From positions 17,608,001 through 17,672,000 of the forward strand of contig CAIIXF020000001.1 in the NCBI GenBank assembly GCA_903813345.2: DNA of 64,000 bases, given 5' to 3'. Below the pieces are notes generated by a model, which saw only the letters and a list, made by a program, of their open reading frames with translations, made no database searches and was not told the origin of the DNA. Below are positions 27,527 to 64,000 of the stretch, piece after piece; positions within the stretch are counted from its first letter, which is position 1; each line of letters opens with the position of its first letter. Source of the DNA: Owenia fusiformis (Eukaryota). The translations under genes were made by a program, and so were the position numbers.

Positions 27527-27894
27527 GTGCCCAAGTCACAGAGGAGCAAACAAGAAATCAAAACAAGGATATGGACTCTGAGTACCACCCGCCGCCTGCA
27601 AAGAAAGAATCGCTGGAAATGGAGGATGGTGACGACGAATGCGAGTTCATGGTGGCAGCGGATCTCACCCTATATACAAACCCCATCAACAGTATTTTGG
27701 GTGCGGGAAAGAGTAGCACGAAGAAAAAGAACGATCATAAGAACGAAGAGAAAGATATGATTGCAGCGGATCTAACAAAGTACGACAGTCCCCTTGCTGC
27801 CATGGATAAGAGTCATACAGATAGACAGAGACAGAATTACGATCCTCATGGAGGGGGGCACCAGCAAGGAGAAAAACATGACAGTAAAAATTAA
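27527..27894 (+). CDS. Putative last coding exon of the same gene, with two AADLTxYxxP motifs
   Basis: tgtttttcAG|GT GCC is a phase-1 acceptor compatible with the 20359 donor; GC-richer coding-like composition; MVAADLTLYTNPI and MIAADLTKYDSPL; TAA at 27892-27894. Confidence 0.6.
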
Positions 27895-29298: not shown

Positions 29299-29341
29299 AC
29301 AAACAAACAAACAAACAAACAAACAAACAAACAAACAAACA
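29299..29341 (+). repeat. (AAAC)n microsatellite, about 10-11 copies
   Basis: Direct reading. Confidence 0.95.
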
Positions 29342-29566
29342 GAGCTACCTGTCCCCAAAAATTCCGTTCTTTGATTTGAAAATAATTCCAAATTATGAAC
29401 AAATATTCATGAGGTTTCTTGTGCAGATCGTGTTCAATGGAGCAAACAGTATTGAACTTTAGTGCATCTGAGGGATCAAGAAAAATTAATATCGAATACC
29501 AGTAGCTTTGTCTATATTGTAATAAACACGGATGCCTGATATTCATGATTATTGTTAGACCTCTCC

Positions 29567-29642
29567 CACGCCTAACCATCGACAACGTACAGCACTGTAA
29601 ACCTGCATAGTATAAATGCGGCAGTTCGCTTGTCACTGGTAG
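29567..29642 (+). mobile_element. Left terminus of a Transib-like element that leads directly into the tandem array
   Basis: CACGCCTAACCATCG is identical to the first 15 bp of the 7555 element TIR; it also shares CA(A/C)CGTACAGC; preceded by TCTCC. Confidence 0.75.
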
Positions 29643-32600
29643 GTAGAAAGCAACTTACTTTTTCACCCATTGGAATACATGTAAAATTGGCAAAGTTCAA
29701 ATCATAATTTCTCAAATCCCAGCCCATCGAATCCTCACATCCATTCAGATCATGTAGTCCTATTCAAAAACTTCCCGTTCGGTTATATGGTGAAAAAAAT
29801 ATCCCACGAACGAAAAAAGATTTTGCTACATTTATAAGCGAGCATTGATTTCTGGGCCTGTAAAAAGCACGTAGGACCTGATTACCCCATTGATTTACTG
29901 AGACCGCCAAAAATTTAATTCAATTTTTTGGTTCAAAATAATAATCTGTCAGCGGTCCCTGACACTCCTACTAGCTATCACCAAACATTAATTGCCAATA
30001 CATGTACACATATACGTGCCATACATCTACAAAGTAGCGAACTAGTGTATTAAGTACTACTTTTCCTATACGATGAGCAAAACAAATCTCAAGTAGGTTA
30101 TATTGACCCTATTAGTGTCATGGTTGACTGAATATGCATTTTATTCAATATGAATTTTAAAGTTCGGGGTTTTATGAAGTGATATGTACATTTTTGCTCA
30201 AATCCCCTCAGCACTTTTGATTCTATAGGGTTCTCTTGACCCCTGGGGTCATTATATTTTGTGACAATTTATTCCAGACTAAATGTAGTTATTTTGTCAT
30301 TAAAATATCTTATTAGAGAAACGTTCAGGAAAAGTTGCGCTATCCACAAGACTTCTTGTCACTGCACTGATAAATGTAGCAAAATAGTCAAAATAATTCA
30401 GCCTTGAGCATGAAATTTTTGAATTTTTGGACAAATTTTGGGCTATTTTGGGGGATTTTTGCCCATTACGATACTAATCTACTTAAAACAGCTGTTTAAA
30501 GTTGTACAAATTGCTTAAGTGATTTATATTCTCTCATAAGTAGGACTATTTGCTACTTTACTAAACTGAACATCATTGATTTTTCGTTTTTCATGAACTT
30601 CTGATGGCTAGTTCAAGTAGCATTGTCTTTTGTGCAGGTTTACTGAATACGTCCCTTTAAAATTGGGTCTTTCGTGGGTTTAAAGGGTCAAAATATTGGA
30701 ACTTTGCACACCGTGGAACGTTTGGGGTGTGTTTCCTTTAATTTGGCAAGAACTGCATCAAATTACTTGATAAGAGAGCAGAAATGTAGCAATTTAGGCT
30801 GAAAAGTACTGTTTTCAATGAAAAAACGAAAATTGCTGACACAGCAAAATTTAGATCGTCGTCTCCAGAATTTTAGGGGTTAATTTGCAAAACTTTAAAT
30901 GGTCCCATAGAAACATATGCGAAATATGGCTAAATTCGACATATTTCTCGAAATTCACTAATAAATGTGGTTGATATTAGTGTCATGGTTGACTGAATAT
31001 GCATTTTATTCAATATGAATTTTAAAGTTCGGGGTTTTATGAAGTGATATGTACATTTTTGCTCAAATCCCCTCAGCACTTTTGATTCTATAGGGTTCTC
31101 TTGACCCCTGGGGTCATTATATTTTGTGACAATTTATTCCAGACTAAATGTAGTTATTTTGTCATTAAAATATCTTATTAGAGAAACGTTCAGGAAAAGT
31201 TGCGCTATCCACAAGACTTCTTGTCACTGCACTGATAAATGTAGCAAAATAGTCAAAATAATTCAGCCTTGAGCATGAAATTTTTGAATTTTTGGACAAA
31301 TTTTGGGCTATTTTGGGGGATTTTTGCCCATAACGATACTAATCTACTTAAAACAGCTGTTTAAAGTTGTACAAATTGCTTAAGTGATTTATATTCTCTC
31401 ATAAGTAGGACTATTTGCTACTTTACTAAACTGAACATCATTGATTTTTCGTTTTTCATGAACTTCTGATGGCTAGTTCAAGTAGCATTGTCTTTTGTGC
31501 AGGTTTACTGAATACGTCCCTTTAAAATTGGGTCTTTCGTGGGTTTAAAGGGTCAAAATATTGGAACTTTGCACACCGTGGAACGTTTGGGGTGTGTTTC
31601 CTTTAATTTGGCAAGAACTGCATCAAATTACTTGATAAGAGAGCAGAAATGTAGCAATTTAGGCTGAAAAGTACTGTTTTCAATGAAAAAACGAAAATTG
31701 CTGACACAGCAAAATTTAGATCGTCGTCTCCAGAATTTTAGGGGTTAATTTGCAAAACTTTAAATGGTCCCATAGAAACATATGCGAAATATGGCTAAAT
31801 TCGACATATTTCTCGAAATTCACTAATAAATGTGGTTGATATTAGTGTCATGGTTGACTGAATATGCATTTTATTCAATATGAATTTTAAAGTTCGGGGT
31901 TTTATGAAGTGATATGTACATTTTTGCTCAAATCCCCTCAGCACTTTTGATTCTATAGGGTTCTCTTGACCCCTGGGGTCATTATATTTTGTGACAATTT
32001 ATTCCAGACTAAATGTAGTTATTTTGTCATTAAAATATCTTATTAGAGAAACGTTCAGGAAAAGTTGCGCTATCCACAAGACTTCTTGTCACTGCACTGA
32101 TAAATGTAGCAAAATAGTCAAAATAATTCAGCCTTGAGCATGAAATTTTTGAATTTTTGGACAAATTTTGGGCTATTTTGGGGGATTTTTGCCCATAACG
32201 ATACTAATCTACTTAAAACAGCTGTTTAAAGTTGTACAAATTGCTTAAGTGATTTATATTCTCTCATAAGTAGGACTATTTGCTACTTTACTAAACTGAA
32301 CATCATTGATTTTTCGTTTTTCATGAACTTCTGATGGCTAGTTCAAGTAGCATTGTCTTTTGTGCAGGTTTACTGAATACGTCCCTTTAAAATTGGGTCT
32401 TTCGTGGGTTTAAAGGGTCAAAATATTGGAACTTTGCACACCGTGGAACGTTTGGGGTGTGTTTCCTTTAATTTGGCAAGAACTGCATCAAATTACTTGA
32501 TAAGAGAGCAGAAATGTAGCAATTTAGGCTGAAAAGTACTGTTTTCAATGAAAAAACGAAAATTGCTGACACAGCAAAATTTAGATCGTCGTCTCCAGAA

Positions 32601-35600
32601 TTTTAGGGGTTAATTTGCAAAACTTTAAATGGTCCCATAGAAACATATGCGAAATATGGCTAAATTCGACATATTTCTCGAAATTCACTAATAAATGTGG
32701 TTGATATTAGTGTCATGGTTGACTGAATATGCATTTTATTCAATATGAATTTTAAAGTTCGGGGTTTTATGAAGTGATATGTACATTTTTGCTCAAATCC
32801 CCTCAGCACTTTTGATTCTATAGGGTTCTCTTGACCCCTGGGGTCATTATATTTTGTGACAATTTATTCCAGACTAAATGTAGTTATTTTGTCATTAAAA
32901 TATCTTATTAGAGAAACGTTCAGGAAAAGTTGCGCTATCCACAAGACTTCTTGTCACTGCACTGATAAATGTAGCAAAATAGTCAAAATAATTCAGCCTT
33001 GAGCATGAAATTTTTGAATTTTTGGACAAATTTTGGGCTATTTTGGGGGATTTTTGCCCATAACGATACTAATCTACTTAAAACAGCTGTTTAAAGTTGT
33101 ACAAATTGCTTAAGTGATTTATATTCTCTCATAAGTAGGACTATTTGCTACTTTACTAAACTGAACATCATTGATTTTTCGTTTTTCATGAACTTCTGAT
33201 GGCTAGTTCAAGTAGCATTGTCTTTTGTGCAGGTTTACTGAATACGTCCCTTTAAAATTGGGTCTTTCGTGGGTTTAAAGGGTCAAAATATTGGAACTTT
33301 GCACACCGTGGAACGTTTGGGGTGTGTTTCCTTTAATTTGGCAAGAACTGCATCAAATTACTTGATAAGAGAGCAGAAATGTAGCAATTTAGGCTGAAAA
33401 GTACTGTTTTCAATGAAAAAAACGAAAATTGCTGACACAGCAAAATTTAGATCGTCGTCTCCAGAATTTTAGGGGTTAATTTGCAAAACTTTAAATGGTC
33501 CCATAGAAACATATGCGAAATATGGCTAAATTCGACATATTTCTCGAAATTCACTAATAAATGTGGTTGATATTAGTGTCATGGTTGACTGAATATGCAT
33601 TTTATTCAATATGAATTTTAAAGTTCGGGGTTTTATGAAGTGATATGTACATTTTTGCTCAAATCCCCTCAGCACTTTTGATTCTATAGGGTTCTCTTGA
33701 CCCCTGGGGTCATTATATTTTGTGACAATTTATTCCAGACTAAATGTAGTTATTTTGTCATTAAAATATCTTATTAGAGAAACGTTCAGGAAAAGTTGCG
33801 CTATCCACAAGACTTCTTGTCACTGCACTGATAAATGTAGCAAAATAGTCAAAATAATTCAGCCTTGAGCATGAAATTTTTGAATTTTTGGACAAATTTT
33901 GGGCTATTTTGGGGGATTTTTGCCCATAACGATACTAATCTACTTAAAACAGCTGTTTAAAGTTGTACAAATTGCTTAAGTGATTTATATTCTCTCATAA
34001 GTAGGACTATTTGCTACTTTACTAAACTGAACATCATTGATTTTTCGTTTTTCATGAACTTCTGATGGCTAGTTCAAGTAGCATTGTCTTTTGTGCAGGT
34101 TTACTGAATACGTCCCTTTAAAATTGGGTCTTTCGTGGGTTTAAAGGGTCAAAATATTGGAACTTTGCACACCGTGGAACGTTTGGGGTGTGTTTCCTTT
34201 AATTTGGCAAGAACTGCATCAAATTACTTGATAAGAGAGCAGAAATGTAGCAATTTAGGCTGAAAAGTACTGTTTTCAATGAAAAAACGAAAATTGCTGA
34301 CACAGCAAAATTTAGATCGTCGTCTCCAGAATTTTAGGGGTTAATTTGCAAAACTTTAAATGGTCCCATAGAAACATATGCGAAATATGGCTAAATTCGA
34401 CATATTTCTCGAAATTCACTAATAAATGTGGTTGATATTAGTGTCATGGTTGACTGAATATGCATTTTATTCAATATGAATTTTAAAGTTCGGGGTTTTA
34501 TGAAGTGATATGTACATTTTTGCTCAAATCCCCTCAGCACTTTTGATTCTATAGGGTTCTCTTGACCCCTGGGGTCATTATATTTTGTGACAATTTATCC
34601 CAGACTAAATGTAGTTATTTTGTCATTAAAATATCTTATTAGAGAAACGTTCAGGAAAAGTTGCGCTATCCACAAGACTTCTTGTCACTGCACTGATAAA
34701 TGTAGCAAAATAGTCAAAATAATTCAGCCTTGAGCATGAAATTTTTGAATTTTTGGACAAATTTTGGGCTATTTTGGGGGATTTTTGCCCATAACGATAC
34801 TAATCTACTTAAAACAGCTGTTTAAAGTTGTACAAATTGCTTAAGTGATTTATATTCTCTCATAAGTAGGACTATTTGCTACTTTACTAAACTGAACATC
34901 ATTGATTTTTCGTTTTTCATGAACTTCTGATGGCTAGTTCAAGTAGCATTGTCTTTTGTGCAGGTTTACTGAATACGTCCCTTTAAAATTGGGTCTTTCG
35001 TGGGTTTAAAGGGTCAAAATATTGGAACTTTGCACACCGTGGAACGTTTGGGGTGTGTTTCCTTTAATTTGGCAAGAACTGCATCAAATTACTTGATAAG
35101 AGAGCAGAAATGTAGCAATTTAGGCTGAAAAGTACTGTTTTCAATGAAAAAACGAAAATTGCTGACACAGCAAAATTTAGATCGTCGTCTCCAGAATTTT
35201 AGGGGTTAATTTGCAAAACTTTAAATGGTCCCATAGAAACATATGCGAAATATGGCTAAATTCGACATATTTCTCGAAATTCACTAATAAATGTGGTTGA
35301 TATTAGGTAGAAAGCAACTTACTTTTTCACCCATTGGAATACATGTAAAATTGGCAAAGTTCAAATCATAATTTCTCAAATCCCAGCCCATCGAATCCTC
35401 ACATCCATTCAGATCATGTAGTCCTATTCAAAAACTTCCCGTTCGGTTATATGGTGAAAAAAATATCCCACGAACGAAAAAAGATTTTGCTACATTTATA
35501 AGCGAGCATTGATTTCTGGGCCTGTAAAAAGCACGTAGGACCTGATTACCCCATTGATTTACTGAGACCGCCAAAAATTTAATTCAATTTTTTGGTTCAA

Positions 35601-38600
35601 AATAATAATCTGTCAGCGGTCCCTGACACTCCTACTAGCTATCACCAAACATTAATTGCCAATACATGTACACATATACGTGCCATACATCTACAAAGTA
35701 GCGAACTAGTGTATTAAGTACTACTTTTCCTATACGATGAGCAAAACAAATCTCAAGTAGGTTATATTGACCCTATTAGTGTCATGGTTGACTGAATATG
35801 CATTTTATTCAATATGAATTTTAAAGTTCGGGGTTTTATGAAGTGATATGTACATTTTTGCTCAAATCCCCTCAGCACTTTTGATTCTATAGGGTTCTCT
35901 TGACCCCTGGGGTCATTATATTTTGTGACAATTTATTCCAGACTAAATGTAGTTATTTTGTCATTAAAATATCTTATTAGAGAAACGTTCAGGAAAAGTT
36001 GCGCTATCCACAAGACTTCTTGTCACTGCACTGATAAATGTAGCAAAATAGTCAAAATAATTCAGCCTTGAGCATGAAATTTTTGAATTTTTGGACAAAT
36101 TTTGGGCTATTTTGGGGGATTTTTGCCCATAACGATACTAATCTACTTAAAACAGCTGTTTAAAGTTGTACAAATTGCTTAAGTGATTTATATTCTCTCA
36201 TAAGTAGGACTATTTGCTACTTTACTAAACTGAACATCATTGATTTTTCGTTTTTCATGAACTTCTGATGGCTAGTTCAAGTAGCATTGTCTTTTGTGCA
36301 GGTTTACTGAATACGTCCCTTTAAAATTGGGTCTTTCGTGGGTTTAAAGGGTCAAAATATTGGAACTTTGCACACCGTGGAACGTTTGGGGTGTGTTTCC
36401 TTTAATTTGGCAAGAACTGCATCAAATTACTTGATAAGAGAGCAGAAATGTAGCAATTTAGGCTGAAAAGTACTGTTTTCAATGAAAAAACGAAAATTGC
36501 TGACACAGCAAAATTTAGATCGTCGTCTCCAGAATTTTAGGGGTTAATTTGCAAAACTTTAAATGGTCCCATAGAAACATATGCGAAATATGGCTAAATT
36601 CGACATATTTCTCGAAATTCACTAATAAATGTGGTTGATATTAGTGTCATGGTTGACTGAATATGCATTTTATTCAATATGAATTTTAAAGTTCGGGGTT
36701 TTATGAAGTGATATGTACATTTTTGCTCAAATCCCCTCAGCACTTTTGATTCTATAGGGTTCTCTTGACCCCTGGGGTCATTATATTTTGTGACAATTTA
36801 TTCCAGACTAAATGTAGTTATTTTGTCATTAAAATATCTTATTAGAGAAACGTTCAGGAAAAGTTGCGCTATCCACAAGACTTCTTGTCACTGCACTGAT
36901 AAATGTAGCAAAATAGTCAAAATAATTCAGCCTTGAGCATGAAATTTTTGAATTTTTGGACAAATTTTGGGCTATTTTGGGGGATTTTTGCCCATAACGA
37001 TACTAATCTACTTAAAACAGCTGTTTAAAGTTGTACAAATTGCTTAAGTGATTTATATTCTCTCATAAGTAGGACTATTTGCTACTTTACTAAACTGAAC
37101 ATCATTGATTTTTCGTTTTTCATGAACTTCTGATGGCTAGTTCAAGTAGCATTGTCTTTTGTGCAGGTTTACTGAATACGTCCCTTTAAAATTGGGTCTT
37201 TCGTGGGTTTAAAGGGTCAAAATATTGGAACTTTGCACACCGTGGAACGTTTGGGGTGTGTTTCCTTTAATTTGGCAAGAACTGCATCAAATTACTTGAT
37301 AAGAGAGCAGAAATGTAGCAATTTAGGCTGAAAAGTACTGTTTTCAATGAAAAAACGAAAATTGCTGACACAGCAAAATTTAGATCGTCGTCTCCAGAAT
37401 TTTAGGGGTTAATTTGCAAAACTTTAAATGGTCCCATAGAAACATATGCGAAATATGGCTAAATTCGACATATTTCTCGAAATTCACTAATAAATGTGGT
37501 TGATATTAGTGTCATGGTTGACTGAATATGCATTTTATTCAATATGAATTTTAAAGTTCGGGGTTTTATGAAGTGATATGTACATTTTTGCTCAAATCCC
37601 CTCAGCACTTTTGATTCTATAGGGTTCTCTTGACCCCTGGGGTCATTATATTTTGTGACAATTTATTCCAGACTAAATGTAGTTATTTTGTCATTAAAAT
37701 ATCTTATTAGAGAAACGTTCAGGAAAAGTTGCGCTATCCACAAGACTTCTTGTCACTGCACTGATAAATGTAGCAAAATAGTCAAAATAATTCAGCCTTG
37801 AGCATGAAATTTTTGAATTTTTGGACAAATTTTGGGCTATTTTGGGGGATTTTTGCCCATAACGATACTAATCTACTTAAAACAGCTGTTTAAAGTTGTA
37901 CAAATTGCTTAAGTGATTTATATTCTCTCATAAGTAGGACTATTTGCTACTTTACTAAACTGAACATCATTGATTTTTCGTTTTTCATGAACTTCTGATG
38001 GCTAGTTCAAGTAGCATTGTCTTTTGTGCAGGTTTACTGAATACGTCCCTTTAAAATTGGGTCTTTCGTGGGTTTAAAGGGTCAAAATATTGGAACTTTG
38101 CACACCGTGGAACGTTTGGGGTGTGTTTCCTTTAATTTGGCAAGAACTGCATCAAATTACTTGATAAGAGAGCAGAAATGTAGCAATTTAGGCTGAAAAG
38201 TACTGTTTTCAATGAAAAAACGAAAATTGCTGACACAGCAAAATTTAGATCGTCGTCTCCAGAATTTTAGGGGTTAATTTGCAAAACTTTAAATGGTCCC
38301 ATAGAAACATATGCGAAATATGGCTAAATTCGACATATTTCTCGAAATTCACTAATAAATGTGGTTGATATTAGTGTCATGGTTGACTGAATATGCATTT
38401 TATTCAATATGAATTTTAAAGTTCGGGGTTTTATGAAGTGATATGTACATTTTTGCTCAAATCCCCTCAGCACTTTTGATTCTATAGGGTTCTCTTGACC
38501 CCTGGGGTCATTATATTTTGTGACAATTTATTCCAGACTAAATGTAGTTATTTTGTCATTAAAATATCTTATTAGAGAAACGTTCAGGAAAAGTTGCGCT

Positions 38601-41600
38601 ATCCACAAGACTTCTTGTCACTGCACTGATAAATGTAGCAAAATAGTCAAAATAATTCAGCCTTGAGCATGAAATTTTTGAATTTTTGGACAAATTTTGG
38701 GCTATTTTGGGGGATTTTTGCCCATAACGATACTAATCTACTTAAAACAGCTGTTTAAAGTTGTACAAATTGCTTAAGTGATTTATATTCTCTCATAAGT
38801 AGGACTATTTGCTACTTTACTAAACTGAACATCATTGATTTTTCGTTTTTCATGAACTTCTGATGGCTAGTTCAAGTAGCATTGTCTTTTGTGCAGGTTT
38901 ACTGAATACGTCCCTTTAAAATTGGGTCTTTCGTGGGTTTAAAGGGTCAAAATATTGGAACTTTGCACACCGTGGAACGTTTGGGGTGTGTTTCCTTTAA
39001 TTTGGCAAGAACTGCATCAAATTACTTGATAAGAGAGCAGAAATGTAGCAATTTAGGCTGAAAAGTACTGTTTTCAATGAAAAAACGAAAATTGCTGACA
39101 CAGCAAAATTTAGATCGTCGTCTCCAGAATTTTAGGGGTTAATTTGCAAAACTTTAAATGGTCCCATAGAAACATATGCGAAATATGGCTAAATTCGACA
39201 TATTTCTCGAAATTCACTAATAAATGTGGTTGATATTAGTGTCATGGTTGACTGAATATGCATTTTATTCAATATGAATTTTAAAGTTCGGGGTTTTATG
39301 AAGTGATATGTACATTTTTGCTCAAATCCCCTCAGCACTTTTGATTCTATAGGGTTCTCTTGACCCCTGGGGTCATTATATTTTGTGACAATTTATTCCA
39401 GACTAAATGTAGTTATTTTGTCATTAAAATATCTTATTAGAGAAACGTTCAGGAAAAGTTGCGCTATCCACAAGACTTCTTGTCACTGCACTGATAAATG
39501 TAGCAAAATAGTCAAAATAATTCAGCCTTGAGCATGAAATTTTTGAATTTTTGGACAAATTTTGGGCTATTTTGGGGGATTTTTGCCCATAACGATACTA
39601 ATCTACTTAAAACAGCTGTTTAAAGTTGTACAAATTGCTTAAGTGATTTATATTCTCTCATAAGTAGGACTATTTGCTACTTTACTAAACTGAACATCAT
39701 TGATTTTTCGTTTTTCATGAACTTCTGATGGCTAGTTCAAGTAGCATTGTCTTTTGTGCAGGTTTACTGAATACGTCCCTTTAAAATTGGGTCTTTCGTG
39801 GGTTTAAAGGGTCAAAATATTGGAACTTTGCACACCGTGGAACGTTTGGGGTGTGTTTCCTTTAATTTGGCAAGAACTGCATCAAATTACTTGATAAGAG
39901 AGCAGAAATGTAGCAATTTAGGCTGAAAAGTACTGTTTTCAATGAAAAAACGAAAATTGCTGACACAGCAAAATTTAGATCGTCGTCTCCAGAATTTTAG
40001 GGGTTAATTTGCAAAACTTTAAATGGTCCCATAGAAACATATGCGAAATATGGCTAAATTCGACATATTTCTCGAAATTCACTAATAAATGTGGTTGATA
40101 TTAGTGTCATGGTTGACTGAATATGCATTTTATTCAATATGAATTTTAAAGTTCGGGGTTTTATGAAGTGATATGTACATTTTTGCTCAAATCCCCTCAG
40201 CACTTTTGATTCTATAGGGTTCTCTTGACCCCTGGGGTCATTATATTTTGTGACAATTTATTCCAGACTAAATGTAGTTATTTTGTCATTAAAATATCTT
40301 ATTAGAGAAACGTTCAGGAAAAGTTGCGCTATCCACAAGACTTCTTGTCACTGCACTGATAAATGTAGCAAAATAGTCAAAATAATTCAGCCTTGAGCAT
40401 GAAATTTTTGAATTTTTGGACAAATTTTGGGCTATTTTGGGGGATTTTTGCCCATAACGATACTAATCTACTTAAAACAGCTGTTTAAAGTTGTACAAAT
40501 TGCTTAAGTGATTTATATTCTCTCATAAGTAGGACTATTTGCTACTTTACTAAACTGAACATCATTGATTTTTCGTTTTTCATGAACTTCTGATGGCTAG
40601 TTCAAGTAGCATTGTCTTTTGTGCAGGTTTACTGAATACGTCCCTTTAAAATTGGGTCTTTCGTGGGTTTAAAGGGTCAAAATATTGGAACTTTGCACAC
40701 CGTGGAACGTTTGGGGTGTGTTTCCTTTAATTTGGCAAGAACTGCATCAAATTACTTGATAAGAGAGCAGAAATGTAGCAATTTAGGCTGAAAAGTACTG
40801 TTTTCAATGAAAAAACGAAAATTGCTGACACAGCAAAATTTAGATCGTCGTCTCCAGAATTTTAGGGGTTAATTTGCAAAACTTTAAATGGTCCCATAGA
40901 AACATATGCGAAATATGGCTAAATTCGACATATTTCTCGAAATTCACTAATAAATGTGGTTGATATTAGTGTCATGGTTGACTGAATATGCATTTTATTC
41001 AATATGAATTTTAAAGTTCGGGGTTTTATGAAGTGATATGTACATTTTTGCTCAAATCCCCTCAGCACTTTTGATTCTATAGGGTTCTCTTGACCCCTGG
41101 GGTCATTATATTTTGTGACAATTTATTCCAGACTAAATGTAGTTATTTTGTCATTAAAATATCTTATTAGAGAAACGTTCAGGAAAAGTTGCGCTATCCA
41201 CAAGACTTCTTGTCACTGCACTGATAAATGTAGCAAAATAGTCAAAATAATTCAGCCTTGAGCATGAAATTTTTGAATTTTTGGACAAATTTTGGGCTAT
41301 TTTGGGGGATTTTTGCCCATAACGATACTAATCTACTTAAAACAGCTGTTTAAAGTTGTACAAATTGCTTAAGTGATTTATATTCTCTCATAAGTAGGAC
41401 TATTTGCTACTTTACTAAACTGAACATCATTGATTTTTCGTTTTTCATGAACTTCTGATGGCTAGTTCAAGTAGCATTGTCTTTTGTGCAGGTTTACTGA
41501 ATACGTCCCTTTAAAATTGGGTCTTTCGTGGGTTTAAAGGGTCAAAATATTGGAACTTTGCACACCGTGGAACGTTTGGGGTGTGTTTCCTTTAATTTGG

Positions 41601-50600: not shown

Positions 50601-53600
50601 GGACTATTTGCTACTTTACTAAACTGAACATCATTGATTTTTCGTTTTTCATGAACTTCTGATGGCTAGTTCAAGTAGCATTGTCTTTTGTGCAGGTTTA
50701 CTGAATACGTCCCTTTAAAATTGGGTCTTTCGTGGGTTTAAAGGGTCAAAATATTGGAACTTTGCACACCGTGGAACGTTTGGGGTGTGTTTCCTTTAAT
50801 TTGGCAAGAACTGCATCAAATTACTTGATAAGAGAGCAGAAATGTAGCAATTTAGGCTGAAAAGTACTGTTTTCAATGAAAAAAACGAAAATTGCTGACA
50901 CAGCAAAATTTAGATCGTCGTCTCCAGAATTTTAGGGGTTAATTTGCAAAACTTTAAATGGTCCCATAGAAACATATGCGAAATATGGCTAAATTCGACA
51001 TATTTCTCGAAATTCACTAATAAATGTGGTTGATATTAGTGTCATGGTTGACTGAATATGCATTTTATTCAATATGAATTTTAAAGTTCGGGGTTTTATG
51101 AAGTGATATGTACATTTTTGCTCAAATCCCCTCAGCACTTTTGATTCTATAGGGTTCTCTTGACCCCTGGGGTCATTATATTTTGTGACAATTTATTCCA
51201 GACTAAATGTAGTTATTTTGTCATTAAAATATCTTATTAGAGAAACGTTCAGGAAAAGTTGCGCTATCCACAAGACTTCTTGTCACTGCACTGATAAATG
51301 TAGCAAAATAGTCAAAATAATTCAGCCTTGAGCATGAAATTTTTGAATTTTTGGACAAATTTTGGGCTATTTTGGGGGATTTTTGCCCATAACGATACTA
51401 ATCTACTTAAAACAGCTGTTTAAAGTTGTACAAATTGCTTAAGTGATTTATATTCTCTCATAAGTAGGACTATTTGCTACTTTACTAAACTGAACATCAT
51501 TGATTTTTCGTTTTTCATGAACTTCTGATGGCTAGTTCAAGTAGCATTGTCTTTTGTGCAGGTTTACTGAATACGTCCCTTTAAAATTGGGTCTTTCGTG
51601 GGTTTAAAGGGTCAAAATATTGGAACTTTGCACACCGTGGAACGTTTGGGGTGTGTTTCCTTTAATTTGGCAAGAACTGCATCAAATTACTTGATAAGAG
51701 AGCAGAAATGTAGCAATTTAGGCTGAAAAGTACTGTTTTCAATGAAAAAACGAAAATTGCTGACACAGCAAAATTTAGATCGTCGTCTCCAGAATTTTAG
51801 GGGTTAATTTGCAAAACTTTAAATGGTCCCATAGAAACATATGCGAAATATGGCTAAATTCGACATATTTCTCGAAATTCACTAATAAATGTGGTTGATA
51901 TTAGTGTCATGGTTGACTGAATATGCATTTTATTCAATATGAATTTTAAAGTTCGGGGTTTTATGAAGTGATATGTACATTTTTGCTCAAATCCCCTCAG
52001 CACTTTTGATTCTATAGGGTTCTCTTGACCCCTGGGGTCATTATATTTTGTGACAATTTATTCCAGACTAAATGTAGTTATTTTGTCATTAAAATATCTT
52101 ATTAGAGAAACGTTCAGGAAAAGTTGCGCTATCCACAAGACTTCTTGTCACTGCACTGATAAATGTAGCAAAATAGTCAAAATAATTCAGCCTTGAGCAT
52201 GAAATTTTTGAATTTTTGGACAAATTTTGGGCTATTTTGGGGGATTTTTGCCCATAACGATACTAATCTACTTAAAACAGCTGTTTAAAGTTGTACAAAT
52301 TGCTTAAGTGATTTATATTCTCTCATAAGTAGGACTATTTGCTACTTTACTAAACTGAACATCATTGATTTTTCGTTTTTCATGAACTTCTGATGGCTAG
52401 TTCAAGTAGCATTGTCTTTTGTGCAGGTTTACTGAATACGTCCCTTTAAAATTGGGTCTTTCGTGGGTTTAAAGGGTCAAAATATTGGAACTTTGCACAC
52501 CGTGGAACGTTTGGGGTGTGTTTCCTTTAATTTGGCAAGAACTGCATCAAATTACTTGATAAGAGAGCAGAAATGTAGCAATTTAGGCTGAAAAGTACTG
52601 TTTTCAATGAAAAAACGAAAATTGCTGACACAGCAAAATTTAGATCGTCGTCTCCAGAATTTTAGGGGTTAATTTGCAAAACTTTAAATGGTCCCATAGA
52701 AACATATGCGAAATATGGCTAAATTCGACATATTTCTCGAAATTCACTAATAAATGTGGTTGATATTAGTGTCATGGTTGACTGAATATGCATTTTATTC
52801 AATATGAATTTTAAAGTTCGGGGTTTTATGAAGTGATATGTACATTTTTGCTCAAATCCCCTCAGCACTTTTGATTCTATAGGGTTCTCTTGACCCCTGG
52901 GGTCATTATATTTTGTGACAATTTATTCCAGACTAAATGTAGTTATTTTGTCATTAAAATATCTTATTAGAGAAACGTTCAGGAAAAGTTGCGCTATCCA
53001 CAAGACTTCTTGTCACTGCACTGATAAATGTAGCAAAATAGTCAAAATAATTCAGCCTTGAGCATGAAATTTTTGAATTTTTGGACAAATTTTGGGCTAT
53101 TTTGGGGGATTTTTGCCCATAACGATACTAATCTACTTAAAACAGCTGTTTAAAGTTGTACAAATTGCTTAAGTGATTTATATTCTCTCATAAGTAGGAC
53201 TATTTGCTACTTTACTAAACTGAACATCATTGATTTTTCGTTTTTCATGAACTTCTGATGGCTAGTTCAAGTAGCATTGTCTTTTGTGCAGGTTTACTGA
53301 ATACGTCCCTTTAAAATTGGGTCTTTCGTGGGTTTAAAGGGTCAAAATATTGGAACTTTGCACACCGTGGAACGTTTGGGGTGTGTTTCCTTTAATTTGG
53401 CAAGAACTGCATCAAATTACTTGATAAGAGAGCAGAAATGTAGCAATTTAGGCTGAAAAGTACTGTTTTCAATGAAAAAACGAAAATTGCTGACACAGCA
53501 AAATTTAGATCGTCGTCTCCAGAATTTTAGGGGTTAATTTGCAAAACTTTAAATGGTCCCATAGAAACATATGCGAAATATGGCTAAATTCGACATATTT

Positions 53601-56600
53601 CTCGAAATTCACTAATAAATGTGGTTGATATTAGTGTCATGGTTGACTGAATATGCATTTTATTCAATATGAATTTTAAAGTTCGGGGTTTTATGAAGTG
53701 ATATGTACATTTTTGCTCAAATCCCCTCAGCACTTTTGATTCTATAGGGTTCTCTTGACCCCTGGGGTCATTATATTTTGTGACAATTTATTCCAGACTA
53801 AATGTAGTTATTTTGTCATTAAAATATCTTATTAGAGAAACGTTCAGGAAAAGTTGCGCTATCCACAAGACTTCTTGTCACTGCACTGATAAATGTAGCA
53901 AAATAGTCAAAATAATTCAGCCTTGAGCATGAAATTTTTGAATTTTTGGACAAATTTTGGGCTATTTTGGGGGATTTTTGCCCATAACGATACTAATCTA
54001 CTTAAAACAGCTGTTTAAAGTTGTACAAATTGCTTAAGTGATTTATATTCTCTCATAAGTAGGACTATTTGCTACTTTACTAAACTGAACATCATTGATT
54101 TTTCGTTTTTCATGAACTTCTGATGGCTAGTTCAAGTAGCATTGTCTTTTGTGCAGGTTTACTGAATACGTCCCTTTAAAATTGGGTCTTTCGTGGGTTT
54201 AAAGGGTCAAAATATTGGAACTTTGCACACCGTGGAACGTTTGGGGTGTGTTTCCTTTAATTTGGCAAGAACTGCATCAAATTACTTGATAAGAGAGCAG
54301 AAATGTAGCAATTTAGGCTGAAAAGTACTGTTTTCAATGAAAAAACGAAAATTGCTGACACAGCAAAATTTAGATCGTCGTCTCCAGAATTTTAGGGGTT
54401 AATTTGCAAAACTTTAAATGGTCCCATAGAAACATATGCGAAATATGGCTAAATTCGACATATTTCTCGAAATTCACTAATAAATGTGGTTGATATTAGT
54501 GTCATGGTTGACTGAATATGCATTTTATTCAATATGAATTTTAAAGTTCGGGGTTTTATGAAGTGATATGTACATTTTTGCTCAAATCCCCTCAGCACTT
54601 TTGATTCTATAGGGTTCTCTTGACCCCTGGGGTCATTATATTTTGTGACAATTTATTCCAGACTAAATGTAGTTATTTTGTCATTAAAATATCTTATTAG
54701 AGAAACGTTCAGGAAAAGTTGCGCTATCCACAAGACTTCTTGTCACTGCACTGATAAATGTAGCAAAATAGTCAAAATAATTCAGCCTTGAGCATGAAAT
54801 TTTTGAATTTTTGGACAAATTTTGGGCTATTTTGGGGGATTTTTGCCCATAACGATACTAATCTACTTAAAACAGCTGTTTAAAGTTGTACAAATTGCTT
54901 AAGTGATTTATATTCTCTCATAAGTAGGACTATTTGCTACTTTACTAAACTGAACATCATTGATTTTTCGTTTTTCATGAACTTCTGATGGCTAGTTCAA
55001 GTAGCATTGTCTTTTGTGCAGGTTTACTGAATACGTCCCTTTAAAATTGGGTCTTTCGTGGGTTTAAAGGGTCAAAATATTGGAACTTTGCACACCGTGG
55101 AACGTTTGGGGTGTGTTTCCTTTAATTTGGCAAGAACTGCATCAAATTACTTGATAAGAGAGCAGAAATGTAGCAATTTAGGCTGAAAAGTACTGTTTTC
55201 AATGAAAAAACGAAAATTGCTGACACAGCAAAATTTAGATCGTCGTCTCCAGAATTTTAGGGGTTAATTTGCAAAACTTTAAATGGTCCCATAGAAACAT
55301 ATGCGAAATATGGCTAAATTCGACATATTTCTCGAAATTCACTAATAAATGTGGTTGATATTAGTGTCATGGTTGACTGAATATGCATTTTATTCAATAT
55401 GAATTTTAAAGTTCGGGGTTTTATGAAGTGATATGTACATTTTTGCTCAAATCCCCTCAGCACTTTTGATTCTATAGGGTTCTCTTGACCCCTGGGGTCA
55501 TTATATTTTGTGACAATTTATTCCAGACTAAATGTAGTTATTTTGTCATTAAAATATCTTATTAGAGAAACGTTCAGGAAAAGTTGCGCTATCCACAAGA
55601 CTTCTTGTCACTGCACTGATAAATGTAGCAAAATAGTCAAAATAATTCAGCCTTGAGCATGAAATTTTTGAATTTTTGGACAAATTTTGGGCTATTTTGG
55701 GGGATTTTTGCCCATAACGATACTAATCTACTTAAAACAGCTGTTTAAAGTTGTACAAATTGCTTAAGTGATTTATATTCTCTCATAAGTAGGACTATTT
55801 GCTACTTTACTAAACTGAACATCATTGATTTTTCGTTTTTCATGAACTTCTGATGGCTAGTTCAAGTAGCATTGTCTTTTGTGCAGGTTTACTGAATACG
55901 TCCCTTTAAAATTGGGTCTTTCGTGGGTTTAAAGGGTCAAAATATTGGAACTTTGCACACCGTGGAACGTTTGGGGTGTGTTTCCTTTAATTTGGCAAGA
56001 ACTGCATCAAATTACTTGATAAGAGAGCAGAAATGTAGCAATTTAGGCTGAAAAGTACTGTTTTCAATGAAAAAACGAAAATTGCTGACACAGCAAAATT
56101 TAGATCGTCGTCTCCAGAATTTTAGGGGTTAATTTGCAAAACTTTAAATGGTCCCATAGAAACATATGCGAAATATGGCTAAATTCGACATATTTCTCGA
56201 AATTCACTAATAAATGTGGTTGATATTAGGTAGAAAGCAACTTACTTTTTCACCCATTGGAATACATGTAAAATTGGCAAAGTTCAAATCATAATTTCTC
56301 AAATCCCAGCCCATCGAATCCTCACATCCATTCAGATCATGTAGTCCTATTCAAAAACTTCCCGTTCGGTTATATGGTGAAAAAAATATCCCACGAACGA
56401 AAAAAGATTTTGCTACATTTATAAGCGAGCATTGATTTCTGGGCCTGTAAAAAGCACGTAGGACCTGATTACCCCATTGATTTACTGAGACCGCCAAAAA
56501 TTTAATTCAATTTTTTGGTTCAAAATAATAATCTGTCAGCGGTCCCTGACACTCCTACTAGCTATCACCAAACATTAATTGCCAATACATGTACACATAT

Positions 56601-59600
56601 ACGTGCCATACATCTACAAAGTAGCGAACTAGTGTATTAAGTACTACTTTTCCTATACGATGAGCAAAACAAATCTCAAGTAGGTTATATTGACCCTATT
56701 AGTGTCATGGTTGACTGAATATGCATTTTATTCAATATGAATTTTAAAGTTCGGGGTTTTATGAAGTGATATGTACATTTTTGCTCAAATCCCCTCAGCA
56801 CTTTTGATTCTATAGGGTTCTCTTGACCCCTGGGGTCATTATATTTTGTGACAATTTATTCCAGACTAAATGTAGTTATTTTGTCATTAAAATATCTTAT
56901 TAGAGAAACGTTCAGGAAAAGTTGCGCTATCCACAAGACTTCTTGTCACTGCACTGATAAATGTAGCAAAATAGTCAAAATAATTCAGCCTTGAGCATGA
57001 AATTTTTGAATTTTTGGACAAATTTTGGGCTATTTTGGGGGATTTTTGCCCATAACGATACTAATCTACTTAAAACAGCTGTTTAAAGTTGTACAAATTG
57101 CTTAAGTGATTTATATTCTCTCATAAGTAGGACTATTTGCTACTTTACTAAACTGAACATCATTGATTTTTCGTTTTTCATGAACTTCTGATGGCTAGTT
57201 CAAGTAGCATTGTCTTTTGTGCAGGTTTACTGAATACGTCCCTTTAAAATTGGGTCTTTCGTGGGTTTAAAGGGTCAAAATATTGGAACTTTGCACACCG
57301 TGGAACGTTTGGGGTGTGTTTCCTTTAATTTGGCAAGAACTGCATCAAATTACTTGATAAGAGAGCAGAAATGTAGCAATTTAGGCTGAAAAGTACTGTT
57401 TTCAATGAAAAAACGAAAATTGCTGACACAGCAAAATTTAGATCGTCGTCTCCAGAATTTTAGGGGTTAATTTGCAAAACTTTAAATGGTCCCATAGAAA
57501 CATATGCGAAATATGGCTAAATTCGACATATTTCTCGAAATTCACTAATAAATGTGGTTGATATTAGTGTCATGGTTGACTGAATATGCATTTTATTCAA
57601 TATGAATTTTAAAGTTCGGGGTTTTATGAAGTGATATGTACATTTTTGCTCAAATCCCCTCAGCACTTTTGATTCTATAGGGTTCTCTTGACCCCTGGGG
57701 TCATTATATTTTGTGACAATTTATTCCAGACTAAATGTAGTTATTTTGTCATTAAAATATCTTATTAGAGAAACGTTCAGGAAAAGTTGCGCTATCCACA
57801 AGACTTCTTGTCACTGCACTGATAAATGTAGCAAAATAGTCAAAATAATTCAGCCTTGAGCATGAAATTTTTGAATTTTTGGACAAATTTTGGGCTATTT
57901 TGGGGGATTTTTGCCCATAACGATACTAATCTACTTAAAACAGCTGTTTAAAGTTGTACAAATTGCTTAAGTGATTTATATTCTCTCATAAGTAGGACTA
58001 TTTGCTACTTTACTAAACTGAACATCATTGATTTTTCGTTTTTCATGAACTTCTGATGGCTAGTTCAAGTAGCATTGTCTTTTGTGCAGGTTTACTGAAT
58101 ACGTCCCTTTAAAATTGGGTCTTTCGTGGGTTTAAAGGGTCAAAATATTGGAACTTTGCACACCGTGGAACGTTTGGGGTGTGTTTCCTTTAATTTGGCA
58201 AGAACTGCATCAAATTACTTGATAAGAGAGCAGAAATGTAGCAATTTAGGCTGAAAAGTACTGTTTTCAATGAAAAAAACGAAAATTGCTGACACAGCAA
58301 AATTTAGATCGTCGTCTCCAGAATTTTAGGGGTTAATTTGCAAAACTTTAAATGGTCCCATAGAAACATATGCGAAATATGGCTAAATTCGACATATTTC
58401 TCGAAATTCACTAATAAATGTGGTTGATATTAGTGTCATGGTTGACTGAATATGCATTTTATTCAATATGAATTTTAAAGTTCGGGGTTTTATGAAGTGA
58501 TATGTACATTTTTGCTCAAATCCCCTCAGCACTTTTGATTCTATAGGGTTCTCTTGACCCCTGGGGTCATTATATTTTGTGACAATTTATTCCAGACTAA
58601 ATGTAGTTATTTTGTCATTAAAATATCTTATTAGAGAAACGTTCAGGAAAAGTTGCGCTATCCACAAGACTTCTTGTCACTGCACTGATAAATGTAGCAA
58701 AATAGTCAAAATAATTCAGCCTTGAGCATGAAATTTTTGAATTTTTGGACAAATTTTGGGCTATTTTGGGGGATTTTTGCCCATAACGATACTAATCTAC
58801 TTAAAACAGCTGTTTAAAGTTGTACAAATTGCTTAAGTGATTTATATTCTCTCATAAGTAGGACTATTTGCTACTTTACTAAACTGAACATCATTGATTT
58901 TTCGTTTTTCATGAACTTCTGATGGCTAGTTCAAGTAGCATTGTCTTTTGTGCAGGTTTACTGAATACGTCCCTTTAAAATTGGGTCTTTCGTGGGTTTA
59001 AAGGGTCAAAATATTGGAACTTTGCACACCGTGGAACGTTTGGGGTGTGTTTCCTTTAATTTGGCAAGAACTGCATCAAATTACTTGATAAGAGAGCAGA
59101 AATGTAGCAATTTAGGCTGAAAAGTACTGTTTTCAATGAAAAAACGAAAATTGCTGACACAGCAAAATTTAGATCGTCGTCTCCAGAATTTTAGGGGTTA
59201 ATTTGCAAAACTTTAAATGGTCCCATAGAAACATATGCGAAATATGGCTAAATTCGACATATTTCTCGAAATTCACTAATAAATGTGGTTGATATTAGTG
59301 TCATGGTTGACTGAATATGCATTTTATTCAATATGAATTTTAAAGTTCGGGGTTTTATGAAGTGATATGTACATTTTTGCTCAAATCCCCTCAGCACTTT
59401 TGATTCTATAGGGTTCTCTTGACCCCTGGGGTCATTATATTTTGTGACAATTTATTCCAGACTAAATGTAGTTATTTTGTCATTAAAATATCTTATTAGA
59501 GAAACGTTCAGGAAAAGTTGCGCTATCCACAAGACTTCTTGTCACTGCACTGATAAATGTAGCAAAATAGTCAAAATAATTCAGCCTTGAGCATGAAATT

Positions 59601-62600
59601 TTTGAATTTTTGGACAAATTTTGGGCTATTTTGGGGGATTTTTGCCCATAACGATACTAATCTACTTAAAACAGCTGTTTAAAGTTGTACAAATTGCTTA
59701 AGTGATTTATATTCTCTCATAAGTAGGACTATTTGCTACTTTACTAAACTGAACATCATTGATTTTTCGTTTTTCATGAACTTCTGATGGCTAGTTCAAG
59801 TAGCATTGTCTTTTGTGCAGGTTTACTGAATACGTCCCTTTAAAATTGGGTCTTTCGTGGGTTTAAAGGGTCAAAATATTGGAACTTTGCACACCGTGGA
59901 ACGTTTGGGGTGTGTTTCCTTTAATTTGGCAAGAACTGCATCAAATTACTTGATAAGAGAGCAGAAATGTAGCAATTTAGGCTGAAAAGTACTGTTTTCA
60001 ATGAAAAAACGAAAATTGCTGACACAGCAAAATTTAGATCGTCGTCTCCAGAATTTTAGGGGTTAATTTGCAAAACTTTAAATGGTCCCATAGAAACATA
60101 TGCGAAATATGGCTAAATTCGACATATTTCTCGAAATTCACTAATAAATGTGGTTGATATTAGTGTCATGGTTGACTGAATATGCATTTTATTCAATATG
60201 AATTTTAAAGTTCGGGGTTTTATGAAGTGATATGTACATTTTTGCTCAAATCCCCTCAGCACTTTTGATTCTATAGGGTTCTCTTGACCCCTGGGGTCAT
60301 TATATTTTGTGACAATTTATTCCAGACTAAATGTAGTTATTTTGTCATTAAAATATCTTATTAGAGAAACGTTCAGGAAAAGTTGCGCTATCCACAAGAC
60401 TTCTTGTCACTGCACTGATAAATGTAGCAAAATAGTCAAAATAATTCAGCCTTGAGCATGAAATTTTTGAATTTTTGGACAAATTTTGGGCTATTTTGGG
60501 GGATTTTTGCCCATAACGATACTAATCTACTTAAAACAGCTGTTTAAAGTTGTACAAATTGCTTAAGTGATTTATATTCTCTCATAAGTAGGACTATTTG
60601 CTACTTTACTAAACTGAACATCATTGATTTTTCGTTTTTCATGAACTTCTGATGGCTAGTTCAAGTAGCATTGTCTTTTGTGCAGGTTTACTGAATACGT
60701 CCCTTTAAAATTGGGTCTTTCGTGGGTTTAAAGGGTCAAAATATTGGAACTTTGCACACCGTGGAACGTTTGGGGTGTGTTTCCTTTAATTTGGCAAGAA
60801 CTGCATCAAATTACTTGATAAGAGAGCAGAAATGTAGCAATTTAGGCTGAAAAGTACTGTTTTCAATGAAAAAACGAAAATTGCTGACACAGCAAAATTT
60901 AGATCGTCGTCTCCAGAATTTTAGGGGTTAATTTGCAAAACTTTAAATGGTCCCATAGAAACATATGCGAAATATGGCTAAATTCGACATATTTCTCGAA
61001 ATTCACTAATAAATGTGGTTGATATTAGTGTCATGGTTGACTGAATATGCATTTTATTCAATATGAATTTTAAAGTTCGGGGTTTTATGAAGTGATATGT
61101 ACATTTTTGCTCAAATCCCCTCAGCACTTTTGATTCTATAGGGTTCTCTTGACCCCTGGGGTCATTATATTTTGTGACAATTTATTCCAGACTAAATGTA
61201 GTTATTTTGTCATTAAAATATCTTATTAGAGAAACGTTCAGGAAAAGTTGCGCTATCCACAAGACTTCTTGTCACTGCACTGATAAATGTAGCAAAATAG
61301 TCAAAATAATTCAGCCTTGAGCATGAAATTTTTGAATTTTTGGACAAATTTTGGGCTATTTTGGGGGATTTTTGCCCATAACGATACTAATCTACTTAAA
61401 ACAGCTGTTTAAAGTTGTACAAATTGCTTAAGTGATTTATATTCTCTCATAAGTAGGACTATTTGCTACTTTACTAAACTGAACATCATTGATTTTTCGT
61501 TTTTCATGAACTTCTGATGGCTAGTTCAAGTAGCATTGTCTTTTGTGCAGGTTTACTGAATACGTCCCTTTAAAATTGGGTCTTTCGTGGGTTTAAAGGG
61601 TCAAAATATTGGAACTTTGCACACCGTGGAACGTTTGGGGTGTGTTTCCTTTAATTTGGCAAGAACTGCATCAAATTACTTGATAAGAGAGCAGAAATGT
61701 AGCAATTTAGGCTGAAAAGTACTGTTTTCAATGAAAAAACGAAAATTGCTGACACAGCAAAATTTAGATCGTCGTCTCCAGAATTTTAGGGGTTAATTTG
61801 CAAAACTTTAAATGGTCCCATAGAAACATATGCGAAATATGGCTAAATTCGACATATTTCTCGAAATTCACTAATAAATGTGGTTGATATTAGGTAGAAA
61901 GCAACTTACTTTTTCACCCATTGGAATACATGTAAAATTGGCAAAGTTCAAATCATAATTTCTCAAATCCCAGCCCATCGAATCCTCACATCCATTCAGA
62001 TCATGTAGTCCTATTCAAAAACTTCCCGTTCGGTTATATGGTGAAAAAAATATCCCACGAACGAAAAAAGATTTTGCTACATTTATAAGCGAGCATTGAT
62101 TTCTGGGCCTGTAAAAAGCACGTAGGACCTGATTACCCCATTGATTTACTGAGACCGCCAAAAATTTAATTCAATTTTTTGGTTCAAAATAATAATCTGT
62201 CAGCGGTCCCTGACACTCCTACTAGCTATCACCAAACATTAATTGCCAATACATGTACACATATACGTGCCATACATCTACAAAGTAGCGAACTAGTGTA
62301 TTAAGTACTACTTTTCCTATACGATGAGCAAAACAAATCTCAAGTAGGTTATATTGACCCTATTAGTGTCATGGTTGACTGAATATGCATTTTATTCAAT
62401 ATGAATTTTAAAGTTCGGGGTTTTATGAAGTGATATGTACATTTTTGCTCAAATCCCCTCAGCACTTTTGATTCTATAGGGTTCTCTTGACCCCTGGGGT
62501 CATTATATTTTGTGACAATTTATTCCAGACTAAATGTAGTTATTTTGTCATTAAAATATCTTATTAGAGAAACGTTCAGGAAAAGTTGCGCTATCCACAA

Positions 62601-64000
62601 GACTTCTTGTCACTGCACTGATAAATGTAGCAAAATAGTCAAAATAATTCAGCCTTGAGCATGAAATTTTTGAATTTTTGGACAAATTTTGGGCTATTTT
62701 GGGGGATTTTTGCCCATAACGATACTAATCTACTTAAAACAGCTGTTTAAAGTTGTACAAATTGCTTAAGTGATTTATATTCTCTCATAAGTAGGACTAT
62801 TTGCTACTTTACTAAACTGAACATCATTGATTTTTCGTTTTTCATGAACTTCTGATGGCTAGTTCAAGTAGCATTGTCTTTTGTGCAGGTTTACTGAATA
62901 CGTCCCTTTAAAATTGGGTCTTTCGTGGGTTTAAAGGGTCAAAATATTGGAACTTTGCACACCGTGGAACGTTTGGGGTGTGTTTCCTTTAATTTGGCAA
63001 GAACTGCATCAAATTACTTGATAAGAGAGCAGAAATGTAGCAATTTAGGCTGAAAAGTACTGTTTTCAATGAAAAAACGAAAATTGCTGACACAGCAAAA
63101 TTTAGATCGTCGTCTCCAGAATTTTAGGGGTTAATTTGCAAAACTTTAAATGGTCCCATAGAAACATATGCGAAATATGGCTAAATTCGACATATTTCTC
63201 GAAATTCACTAATAAATGTGGTTGATATTAGTGTCATGGTTGACTGAATATGCATTTTATTCAATATGAATTTTAAAGTTCGGGGTTTTATGAAGTGATA
63301 TGTACATTTTTGCTCAAATCCCCTCAGCACTTTTGATTCTATAGGGTTCTCTTGACCCCTGGGGTCATTATATTTTGTGACAATTTATTCCAGACTAAAT
63401 GTAGTTATTTTGTCATTAAAATATCTTATTAGAGAAACGTTCAGGAAAAGTTGCGCTATCCACAAGACTTCTTGTCACTGCACTGATAAATGTAGCAAAA
63501 TAGTCAAAATAATTCAGCCTTGAGCATGAAATTTTTGAATTTTTGGACAAATTTTGGGCTATTTTGGGGGATTTTTGCCCATAACGATACTAATCTACTT
63601 AAAACAGCTGTTTAAAGTTGTACAAATTGCTTAAGTGATTTATATTCTCTCATAAGTAGGACTATTTGCTACTTTACTAAACTGAACATCATTGATTTTT
63701 CGTTTTTCATGAACTTCTGATGGCTAGTTCAAGTAGCATTGTCTTTTGTGCAGGTTTACTGAATACGTCCCTTTAAAATTGGGTCTTTCGTGGGTTTAAA
63801 GGGTCAAAATATTGGAACTTTGCACACCGTGGAACGTTTGGGGTGTGTTTCCTTTAATTTGGCAAGAACTGCATCAAATTACTTGATAAGAGAGCAGAAA
63901 TGTAGCAATTTAGGCTGAAAAGTACTGTTTTCAATGAAAAAACGAAAATTGCTGACACAGCAAAATTTAGATCGTCGTCTCCAGAATTTTAGGGGTTAAT
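29643..64000 (+). repeat. Composite satellite array: 865-bp unit A (35 complete + 1 partial) interspersed with 473-bp unit B (7 copies)
   Basis: B starts at 29643, 35307, 41835, 44038, 48836, 56230, 61894. A runs start at 30116 (x6), 35780 (x7), 42308 (x2), 44511 (x5), 49309 (x8), 56703 (x6), 62367 (x2+, runs off the window). Both units end in TATTAG. The ORF track lists no ORF in it. Confidence 0.98.

Follow-up and report, generated by a model that had tools for sequence, protein, structure and literature searches.

In this study, we examined a 64,000-nucleotide stretch of the Owenia fusiformis genome (assembly GCA_903813345.2, contig CAIIXF020000001.1, positions 17,608,001 to 17,672,000 of the forward strand; hereafter the window, with positions counted from its first letter), in which a long tandem array of two units, B (473 bp) and A (865 bp), directly follows the left end of a non-autonomous Transib-like transposon, T2. 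With a confidence that we put at about even, the window is read as the left edge of a young, locally homogenised array of an abundant, transcribed composite satellite, joined into T2. In this reading the ordinary unit of the satellite is B+A, ~1338 bp long, and the birth of the satellite at this locus, as proposed by the initial annotation, is probably wrong. Contig depths, variant letters and non-B continuations of other element ends argue that the B/A family is older than this array, and that the element exists without it. Of the proposal that the interior of an element was recently amplified into a satellite, the genuine transposon terminus and the very young array stand; its remainder finds no support in the form proposed, B/A being no local novelty and left-end copies of the element occurring without B.

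The array and the element end at its edge

The array occupies 29643..64000 of the plus strand (at least 34.4 kb) and runs off the window, bearing out the earlier description of a repeat array of more than 34 kb that begins at 29643. It is built of 43 head-to-tail modules, seven B and 36 A. The first B unit (473 bp) lies at 29643..30115 (+), with six more beginning at 35307, 41835, 44038, 48836, 56230 and 61894, and all seven are identical. The first A unit follows at 30116..30980 (+, 865 bp) and carries one private single nucleotide polymorphism (SNP), at 30467. As had been noted before, there are no degenerate copies at the edge, the first B being equal to the other six and the first A differing at 1 of its 865 positions. 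K-mer offsets recur at 865 (22,204), 1338 (5,072) and 866 (2,556), and the 865-bp unit finds 36 matches in the window at 99.77-100% identity. Tandem Repeats Finder (TRF) missed the array, because the longest period that it covers is 500.

Thirty-five of the A units are full and one is cut by the window end. Among the full units 29 are identical, three (starting at 32711, 50174 and 57568) have one extra homopolymer A, and three have one private SNP each, which amounts to 6 differences in 30,278 bp. Because of this, the array is very young or homogenised, indeed extremely so; polishing of the assembly could exaggerate this uniformity. The blocks read, in order, B+6A, B+7A, B+2A, B+5A, B+8A, B+6A and B plus at least 2A, with 29 A/A joints in the window against 6 A/B joints (here and below a slash marks a joint), and the variant with one extra A sits second in two adjacent blocks (50174 and 57568). 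The amplification of more than 35-fold that was claimed earlier holds for A, with its 36 units, but not for B, with seven.

B and A have no similarity to each other, to the interior of the reference element E1 described below, or to positions 1-29566. The longest stop-to-stop frame in the units has 67 aa and matches no Pfam family; B is without terminal inverted repeats (TIRs), without a tail and without an open reading frame (ORF) above 63 aa. A 63-aa frame that crosses the joint between element and B had no candidate in a protein database search. An origin from a known RNA gene or a short interspersed element (SINE) was rejected, positions 1-36700 giving 0 Rfam matches and 0 transfer RNAs. 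A 24-nt word from each unit, scanned as an exact pattern, gave 0 loci in metagenome contigs and 0 in viral contigs. A literature search with sequence words found no paper, and the unit lengths of 1338, 1337, 1339, 865, 866 and 473 bp are absent from the main text of two oyster satellitome papers, whose supplements may list monomers. B/A has the features of a satellite: a long head-to-tail array, abundance beyond one locus and a non-coding unit.

The element end is best understood from E1, a 1353-bp non-autonomous CAC...GTG element at 7555..8907 (+), whose termini were read directly. It is flanked by a 5-bp target-site duplication (TSD), TGAAT, present on the left at 7550..7554 and on the right at 8908..8912, and the whole reads tgaat/CACGCCTAACCATCG...CGATGGTAAGGCGTG/tgaat. 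E1 has long inverted arms (positions 195-470 align with 62-337 of the reverse-complemented right end) and seven occurrences of a 14-nt subterminal motif, CGTCACCGTACAGC. Its longest ORF (119 aa) belongs to no Pfam family. The left arm has ~133 nt extra relative to the right arm.

At the array edge, unique DNA ends in TCTCC (29562..29566), which would be the left TSD copy if T2 is complete, and is followed by L, the 76-nt left end of T2, at 29567..29642 (+). Across the boundary the letters are ...gacctctcc/CACGCCTAACCATCG, and CAC begins at 29567. As the initial annotation had it, TCTCC is followed by the terminus of the TSD-flanked element at 7555-8907: the terminal 15 nt of L equal those of E1 at 15/15. 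Beyond that annotation, a subterminal motif is shared as well. A search of the 64 kb with the 15-mer (both strands, at most 3 mismatches) gave three matches, at 7555 (+, 0 mismatches), 8893 (-, 1 mismatch) and 29567 (+, 0 mismatches), against a mean of 0.45 in shuffled sequence, where 1 of 100 shuffles reached three; the chance expectation for an exact match of one given 15-mer is 1.2e-4. The identity between E1 and T2 ends exactly at the terminus, the preceding base being t at 7554 and c at 29566. Aligned with both E1 TIRs, the end at 29567 runs for 13 nt, is interrupted by a 12-nt gap and continues with CGaCAaCGTACAGC; after the gap it matches the E1 motif CGTCACCGTACAGC at 12 of 14 letters. 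The motif thus occurs in L once, at 29580-29593, with 2 mismatches; elsewhere one 3-mismatch match was found in 30.2 kb, and 20 shuffles gave 0-2 matches. T2 starts with CACGCCT, and E1 reads CACGCCT...AGGCGTG. Judged by its letters, 29567-29642 is the genuine left terminus of T2, a second element that is a relative of E1 and belongs to its terminus family. No inverted copy of the 15-nt terminus was found beyond 8893 as far as 64000, and hence none within the array (minus strand, at most 3 mismatches).

The repeat family in other sequencing runs

Four coded public runs of the same organism, X1, X3, X17 and X22, were consulted as contigs and raw reads, X22 being the sole source of RNA evidence. 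Statements on loose ends and pieces hold among the matches listed (there are 432 further loose ends and 3,660 further pieces). Summed contig depth is not a copy number, and its order of magnitude alone was used. In the DNA run X1 the single-copy flank contig has a depth of 70, and the sums reach 173,367-209,040 for B and 84,762-120,755 for A; in X3 the flank lies at about 9-34, B at 8,136-8,563 and A at 419-2,082. By this rough measure, the depths of B and A exceed the flank more than 1000-fold in X1 and by tens to hundreds of times in X3. In each of the four runs the depth of B is ~2 to 10 times that of A, and variant contigs are many (2,854 in X1). B and A are a major genome-wide repeat family.

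The window's form of A is a minority form genome-wide. In X1, letters other than those of the window account for 87,094.7 of a depth of 88,861 at 30695, 41,846.7 of 43,613 at 30712 and 56,050.6 of 56,096.7 at 30841, and the window letters stand at these three positions in every one of the window's 36 A units, because the A forms differ solely at other listed sites. The window letters at 30695 and 30712 have an X1 depth of 1,766, ~25x the flank and of the order of one such array. At 30841 the depth of the window letter is just ~46, for which the only explanation offered is that contigs drop rare variants.

The joints themselves were traced in the same runs. Contigs of two of them, X1 record 3 and X3 record 21, carry the joint between flank and terminus; they span 29352-29592 with 0 and 1 other letters, respectively. 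Their stop at 29592 could reflect an allelic difference at 29593, a diverged element copy or graph branching. One X3 contig matches from 29593 onward, with 43 unlike letters before 29593. Among the matches listed, one X1, one X3 and two X17 contigs follow L to 29642 and then continue into a related sequence other than B, and the 16-nt core of this continuation has 0 matches in the window at up to 2 mismatches. The left end of the element exists without B. The A/B joint was recovered in one X17 loose end before 29640 (30965 to 29640) and in 14 raw RNA reads of X22 (2+12, with 10 start places). The A/A joint did not appear at listing threshold in any of the four runs; since the window holds 29 A/A joints against 6 A/B joints, the A-rich state is local. 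No B/B joint was found among the matches listed.

The family is also transcribed. X22 RNA over B came to 21+27, 6+31 and 5+21 per bin and over A to ~3-12, against 0 to 2.7 over the unique flank 27532-29526. First mates favour the minus strand over B and in 12 of the 14 joint reads, and this bias argues for real transcripts, as carry-over of DNA would be strand-symmetric. Given a library of the usual kind, these would be plus-strand transcripts.

The TAG joints and the origin of the array

Four kinds of joint occur in the window: L/B, at 29640..29650 (+), reads ...cactggtag/GTAGAAAG; A/B reads ...gatattag/GTAGAAAG; A/A reads ...gatattag/TGTCATGG; and B/A reads ...ccctattag/TGTCATGG. The left side of all four ends in TAG, A and B both ending in TATTAG, and the TAG of the L/B junction is thus common to the end of A. 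In other copies of L, GGTAG is followed by AAAG..., which yields 9 nt, GGTAGAAAG, the same as at the A/B joint (g/GTAGAAAG). In the window the element continues through TAG and B then begins from its first letter, with an additional GTAG compared with what a simple crossover inside the 9-mer would leave. Sequence proper to the element stops at 29642, and the identity to the A/B joint starts at 29640. This coincidence is expected from a single joining of a resident element with an existing array; birth in place would take two events within 3 nt, one setting the point up to which T2 matches its relatives, the other the left break of the first duplication.

The order of events and the mechanism of joining we infer as follows. 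A piece of a pre-existing B/A array would have been joined at position 76 of the resident non-autonomous Transib-like T2, with TAG as the joining microhomology, inside the 9-nt identity GGTAGAAAG between element and A/B joint; the route may have been end joining, template switching or the return of satellite DNA that had been excised elsewhere. Growth and uniformity would then go back to unequal exchange, with either a sister or a homologous array as partner, and this is favoured because block sizes are irregular, the variant with one extra A is repeated in adjacent blocks and differences are few. The A-only runs may trace to a single event in which B was lost between the two TATTAG words closing A and B, with the resulting A/A joint amplified afterward. 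A single rolling-circle template was rejected, since it would give regular blocks and the observed ones hold 6, 7, 2, 5, 8 and 6 A units.

Several observations weigh against insertion of a pre-existing array. The edge falls exactly at the start of B, a point fixed independently by the A/A joint, and for a random break in a 1338-bp cycle we estimate this to be a 0.2-0.5% coincidence. Joining alone leaves the phase unaccounted for, and either a hot spot at TTAG/G or B as a discrete module would have to be added. Breaks or nicks may fall preferentially at TTAG/G. Or B may be a discrete module, which fits in that its depth exceeds that of A; the array would then have been seeded by ectopic exchange, one B copy lying in the element and the other in an array. 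Or B may descend from the interior of the element. After the extra GTAG, moreover, B shares AAAG with other element copies, followed by patches such as TCAC.CAT.TGG (by eye, 30 letters compared); if this likeness were true homology, B would descend from the element interior. Edge units are as uniform as interior units, which suits birth in situ equally. The copy number of L is bounded loosely, below a few tens in X3, and one L per array is possible. Last, no piece bridging 29593-29643 was found among the matches listed, both flank contigs stopping at 29592, so that the assembly is the one source of the L/B joint.

Some of these points would be natural if B, with or without A, descended from internal sequence of a non-autonomous Transib-like element of the T2 type, arrays arising within such elements, bounded by TIRs and maybe carried to new sites, with L/B as a native joint. 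We hold this origin, a broadened form of the initial proposal, to be possible but doubtful. A genuine terminus lies 76 nt from the start of the array, roughly the length of end that non-autonomous derivatives retain; the phase of the array at the edge is that of a unit boundary and the edge is not degenerate; GGTAGAAAG is common to other element copies and the start of B, with the patchy similarity after it; the ratio of B to L depth allows one L per array; and there is a precedent in Tetris (PMC4079207). Yet copies of L in three runs do not run into B among the matches listed, the junction has an extra GTAG relative to them, and the element end and the A/B identity, starting within 3 nt of each other, would need two independent events. 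Nor does the E1 interior resemble B or A, and in 34 kb of array a minus-strand search allowing 3 mismatches found no right TIR. For the far end of the array, the initial annotation had predicted a right TIR, ...CGATGGT(T/A)AGGCGTG, followed by TCTCC; this is expected as well if an array was inserted into the element, and would be no proof of birth within.

A distinctly unlikely possibility is that B, and maybe A, are discrete mobile or recombining modules added 3' of TAG, either inserting with a site preference or undergoing ectopic exchange. TAG precedes each of the four kinds of joint, A and B both ending in TATTAG, and no coincidence of phase is needed; the depth of B, ~2 to 10 times that of A in four runs, suggests that B may exist without A. 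On the other hand, B has none of the TIRs, tail or ORF above 63 aa noted earlier, no B/B joint appears among the matches listed, and a microhomology of 3-6 nt used twice is simpler. Helitrons start with 5' TC, end with 3' CTRR and insert between A and T, and such hallmarks are lacking here. A canonical Helitron origin was rejected, the units starting GTAG.../TGTC... and ending ...TTAG, with the element joint reading G/A; on the other strand the units start CTAA and end CTAC/GACA, and neither strand has Helitron ends. Very unlikely, in our judgment, is an assembly artefact, either with copy number and identity produced when repeats were collapsed, expanded or polished, or with a chimeric join of element and array. 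The letter identity of 29 of the 35 full A units and 7/7 B units speaks for it, as do the three of six differences that are homopolymer length changes, the flank contigs that both stop at 29592 with none listed bridging to 29643, and the X1 depth of only ~46 for the window letter at 30841. However, the joint between flank and terminus occurs in two independent runs, the A/B joint in an X17 contig and in X22 RNA reads, and the window letters at 30695 and 30712 have the depth expected in order for such an array (1,766 in X1, ~25x flank); private SNPs and irregular blocks are likewise unlike a collapsed consensus.

It is unlikely, though less so than either of these two, that the finding has a more general form: a Transib-like (RAG-type) non-autonomous element family as both cradle and vehicle of a major transcribed 1.3-kb satellite, with tens-of-kb arrays between TIRs that are seeded with the element, or B as a new kind of module added 3' of TAG. 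Either would place the array edge, A/B and A/A all at the same TAG. Long satellite arrays seldom offer a clean, readable edge, and it is there that the origin and spread of satellites can be read; here the edge is exact to the base, and the transposon at it belongs to a type that has a 5-bp TSD and CAC termini. Should a unit run directly into the right TIR and TCTCC, the locus would be a giant array bounded by TIRs and a possible case of a satellite dispersed by a RAG-type transposase. Should the far end hold the rest of the element instead, a new array would have been seeded by microhomology-mediated insertion. The case is a clean example of a transposon-satellite junction of a kind already known, and the regularity at TAG is left unexplained.

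The array edge lies in gene-bearing DNA, an exon-like frame being ~1.7 kb off and an ACE-like gene further left. The exon frames of the latter were found by a Pfam search (Peptidase_M2, ACE-like; 5485-5823 and 13465-13740, minus strand), and E1, between these two frames, is probably intronic. At 16-1777 (minus strand) lies a remnant of a non-long-terminal-repeat (non-LTR) retrotransposon with an RVT_1 domain (domain E-value 3.8e-25); a 336-aa frame downstream of that domain has no Pfam family. Two 22-nt direct repeats, followed by two copies of their reverse complement, occupy 16436-16523; the repeat unit includes AACCATCGA, 9 nt also present in the T2 terminus, a match that is at chance level in 64 kb by estimate. 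A second very high-copy segment lies at 27000-27531, with a summed contig depth of 215,000-327,000 in X1 against 70 for the flank, and RNA reads of 23-65 + 46-153 per bin; its limits, at 27159, 27176 and 27497/8, are sharp. By eye it contains a promoter-like GCGCATGCGC at ~27193 and a splice-donor-like gag/gtaag at ~27388; it has no Rfam match. The flank at 27474-29200 is present in X1 in two forms, a depth-70 contig that over 1.7 kb departs from the window at 26 letters and has 35 gap letters, and shorter contigs of depth 36-39 that are identical to the window; this locus is highly polymorphic, and the window haplotype seems heterozygous in X1. An (ACAA) microsatellite of 10.8 copies lies at 29299-29341, 225 nt left of the transposon end, and reads appear to be cut there.

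Comparison with known transposons and satellites

A 5-bp TSD is described as unique to Transib among eukaryotic DNA transposons (Kapitonov & Jurka 2005, PMC1131882), and the conserved positions of its TIR are given as CAC and two A's of the nonamer, at about 34-35 of the 38-nt terminus (PMC1131882). E1 resembles Transib in its CAC...GTG termini and 5-bp TSD, T2 in CAC and perhaps in an A-rich block, AAA at 33-35. E1 departs from it with T34 and A35 and an A-run displaced to 43-48 by 12 extra nt (the numbering of the A's coming from one passage of PMC1131882), and with a TSD, TGAAT, that is not GC-rich (PMC1131882). "Transib-like" would be a fair label for E1 and T2, based on CAC termini and one 5-bp TSD. 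The earlier assignment to this group is thus borne out in part: CAC...GTG and the TGAAT duplication are seen in E1 and CAC in T2, and nonamer-like A's may be present in T2 and, more loosely, in E1. A limited literature search found no link between transposons of the CAC/5-bp-TSD type and satellites, and Transib appears in the available text of PMC9659126 in the reference list only.

That satellites arise in, or are dispersed with, non-autonomous DNA transposons is established for Tetris and its TIR-220 repeats (PMC4079207), with further cases in PMC9659126. The foldback element Tetris of Drosophila virilis, with its TIR-220 satellite (PMC4079207; PMC9659126), is, like E1, non-autonomous with long inverted arms. 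It shares its terminal sequence with an otherwise different non-autonomous element, DAIBAM, much as E1 does with T2, and kb-scale satellite arrays are linked to it (PMC4079207). Its repeats, however, are ~220 bp long, lie within the TIRs and occur at low copy in many intact elements (PMC4079207), whereas the units here measure 473 and 865 bp; among the matches listed, no intact element with units was seen in our case and the other left-end copies are without them. In molluscs (Satovic et al. 2016, PMC5139131) the partners are Helitrons and the arrays mostly short, whereas the locus described here combines CAC...GTG TIRs and a 5-bp TSD with an array of at least 34 kb and a 1.3-kb composite unit. 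Despite these differences, the transition from satellite to other sequence is abrupt in both, with transposon segments adjoining, and the insertion or recombination of short arrays proposed there (PMC5139131) is the same mechanism that we favour for the joining of B/A to T2.

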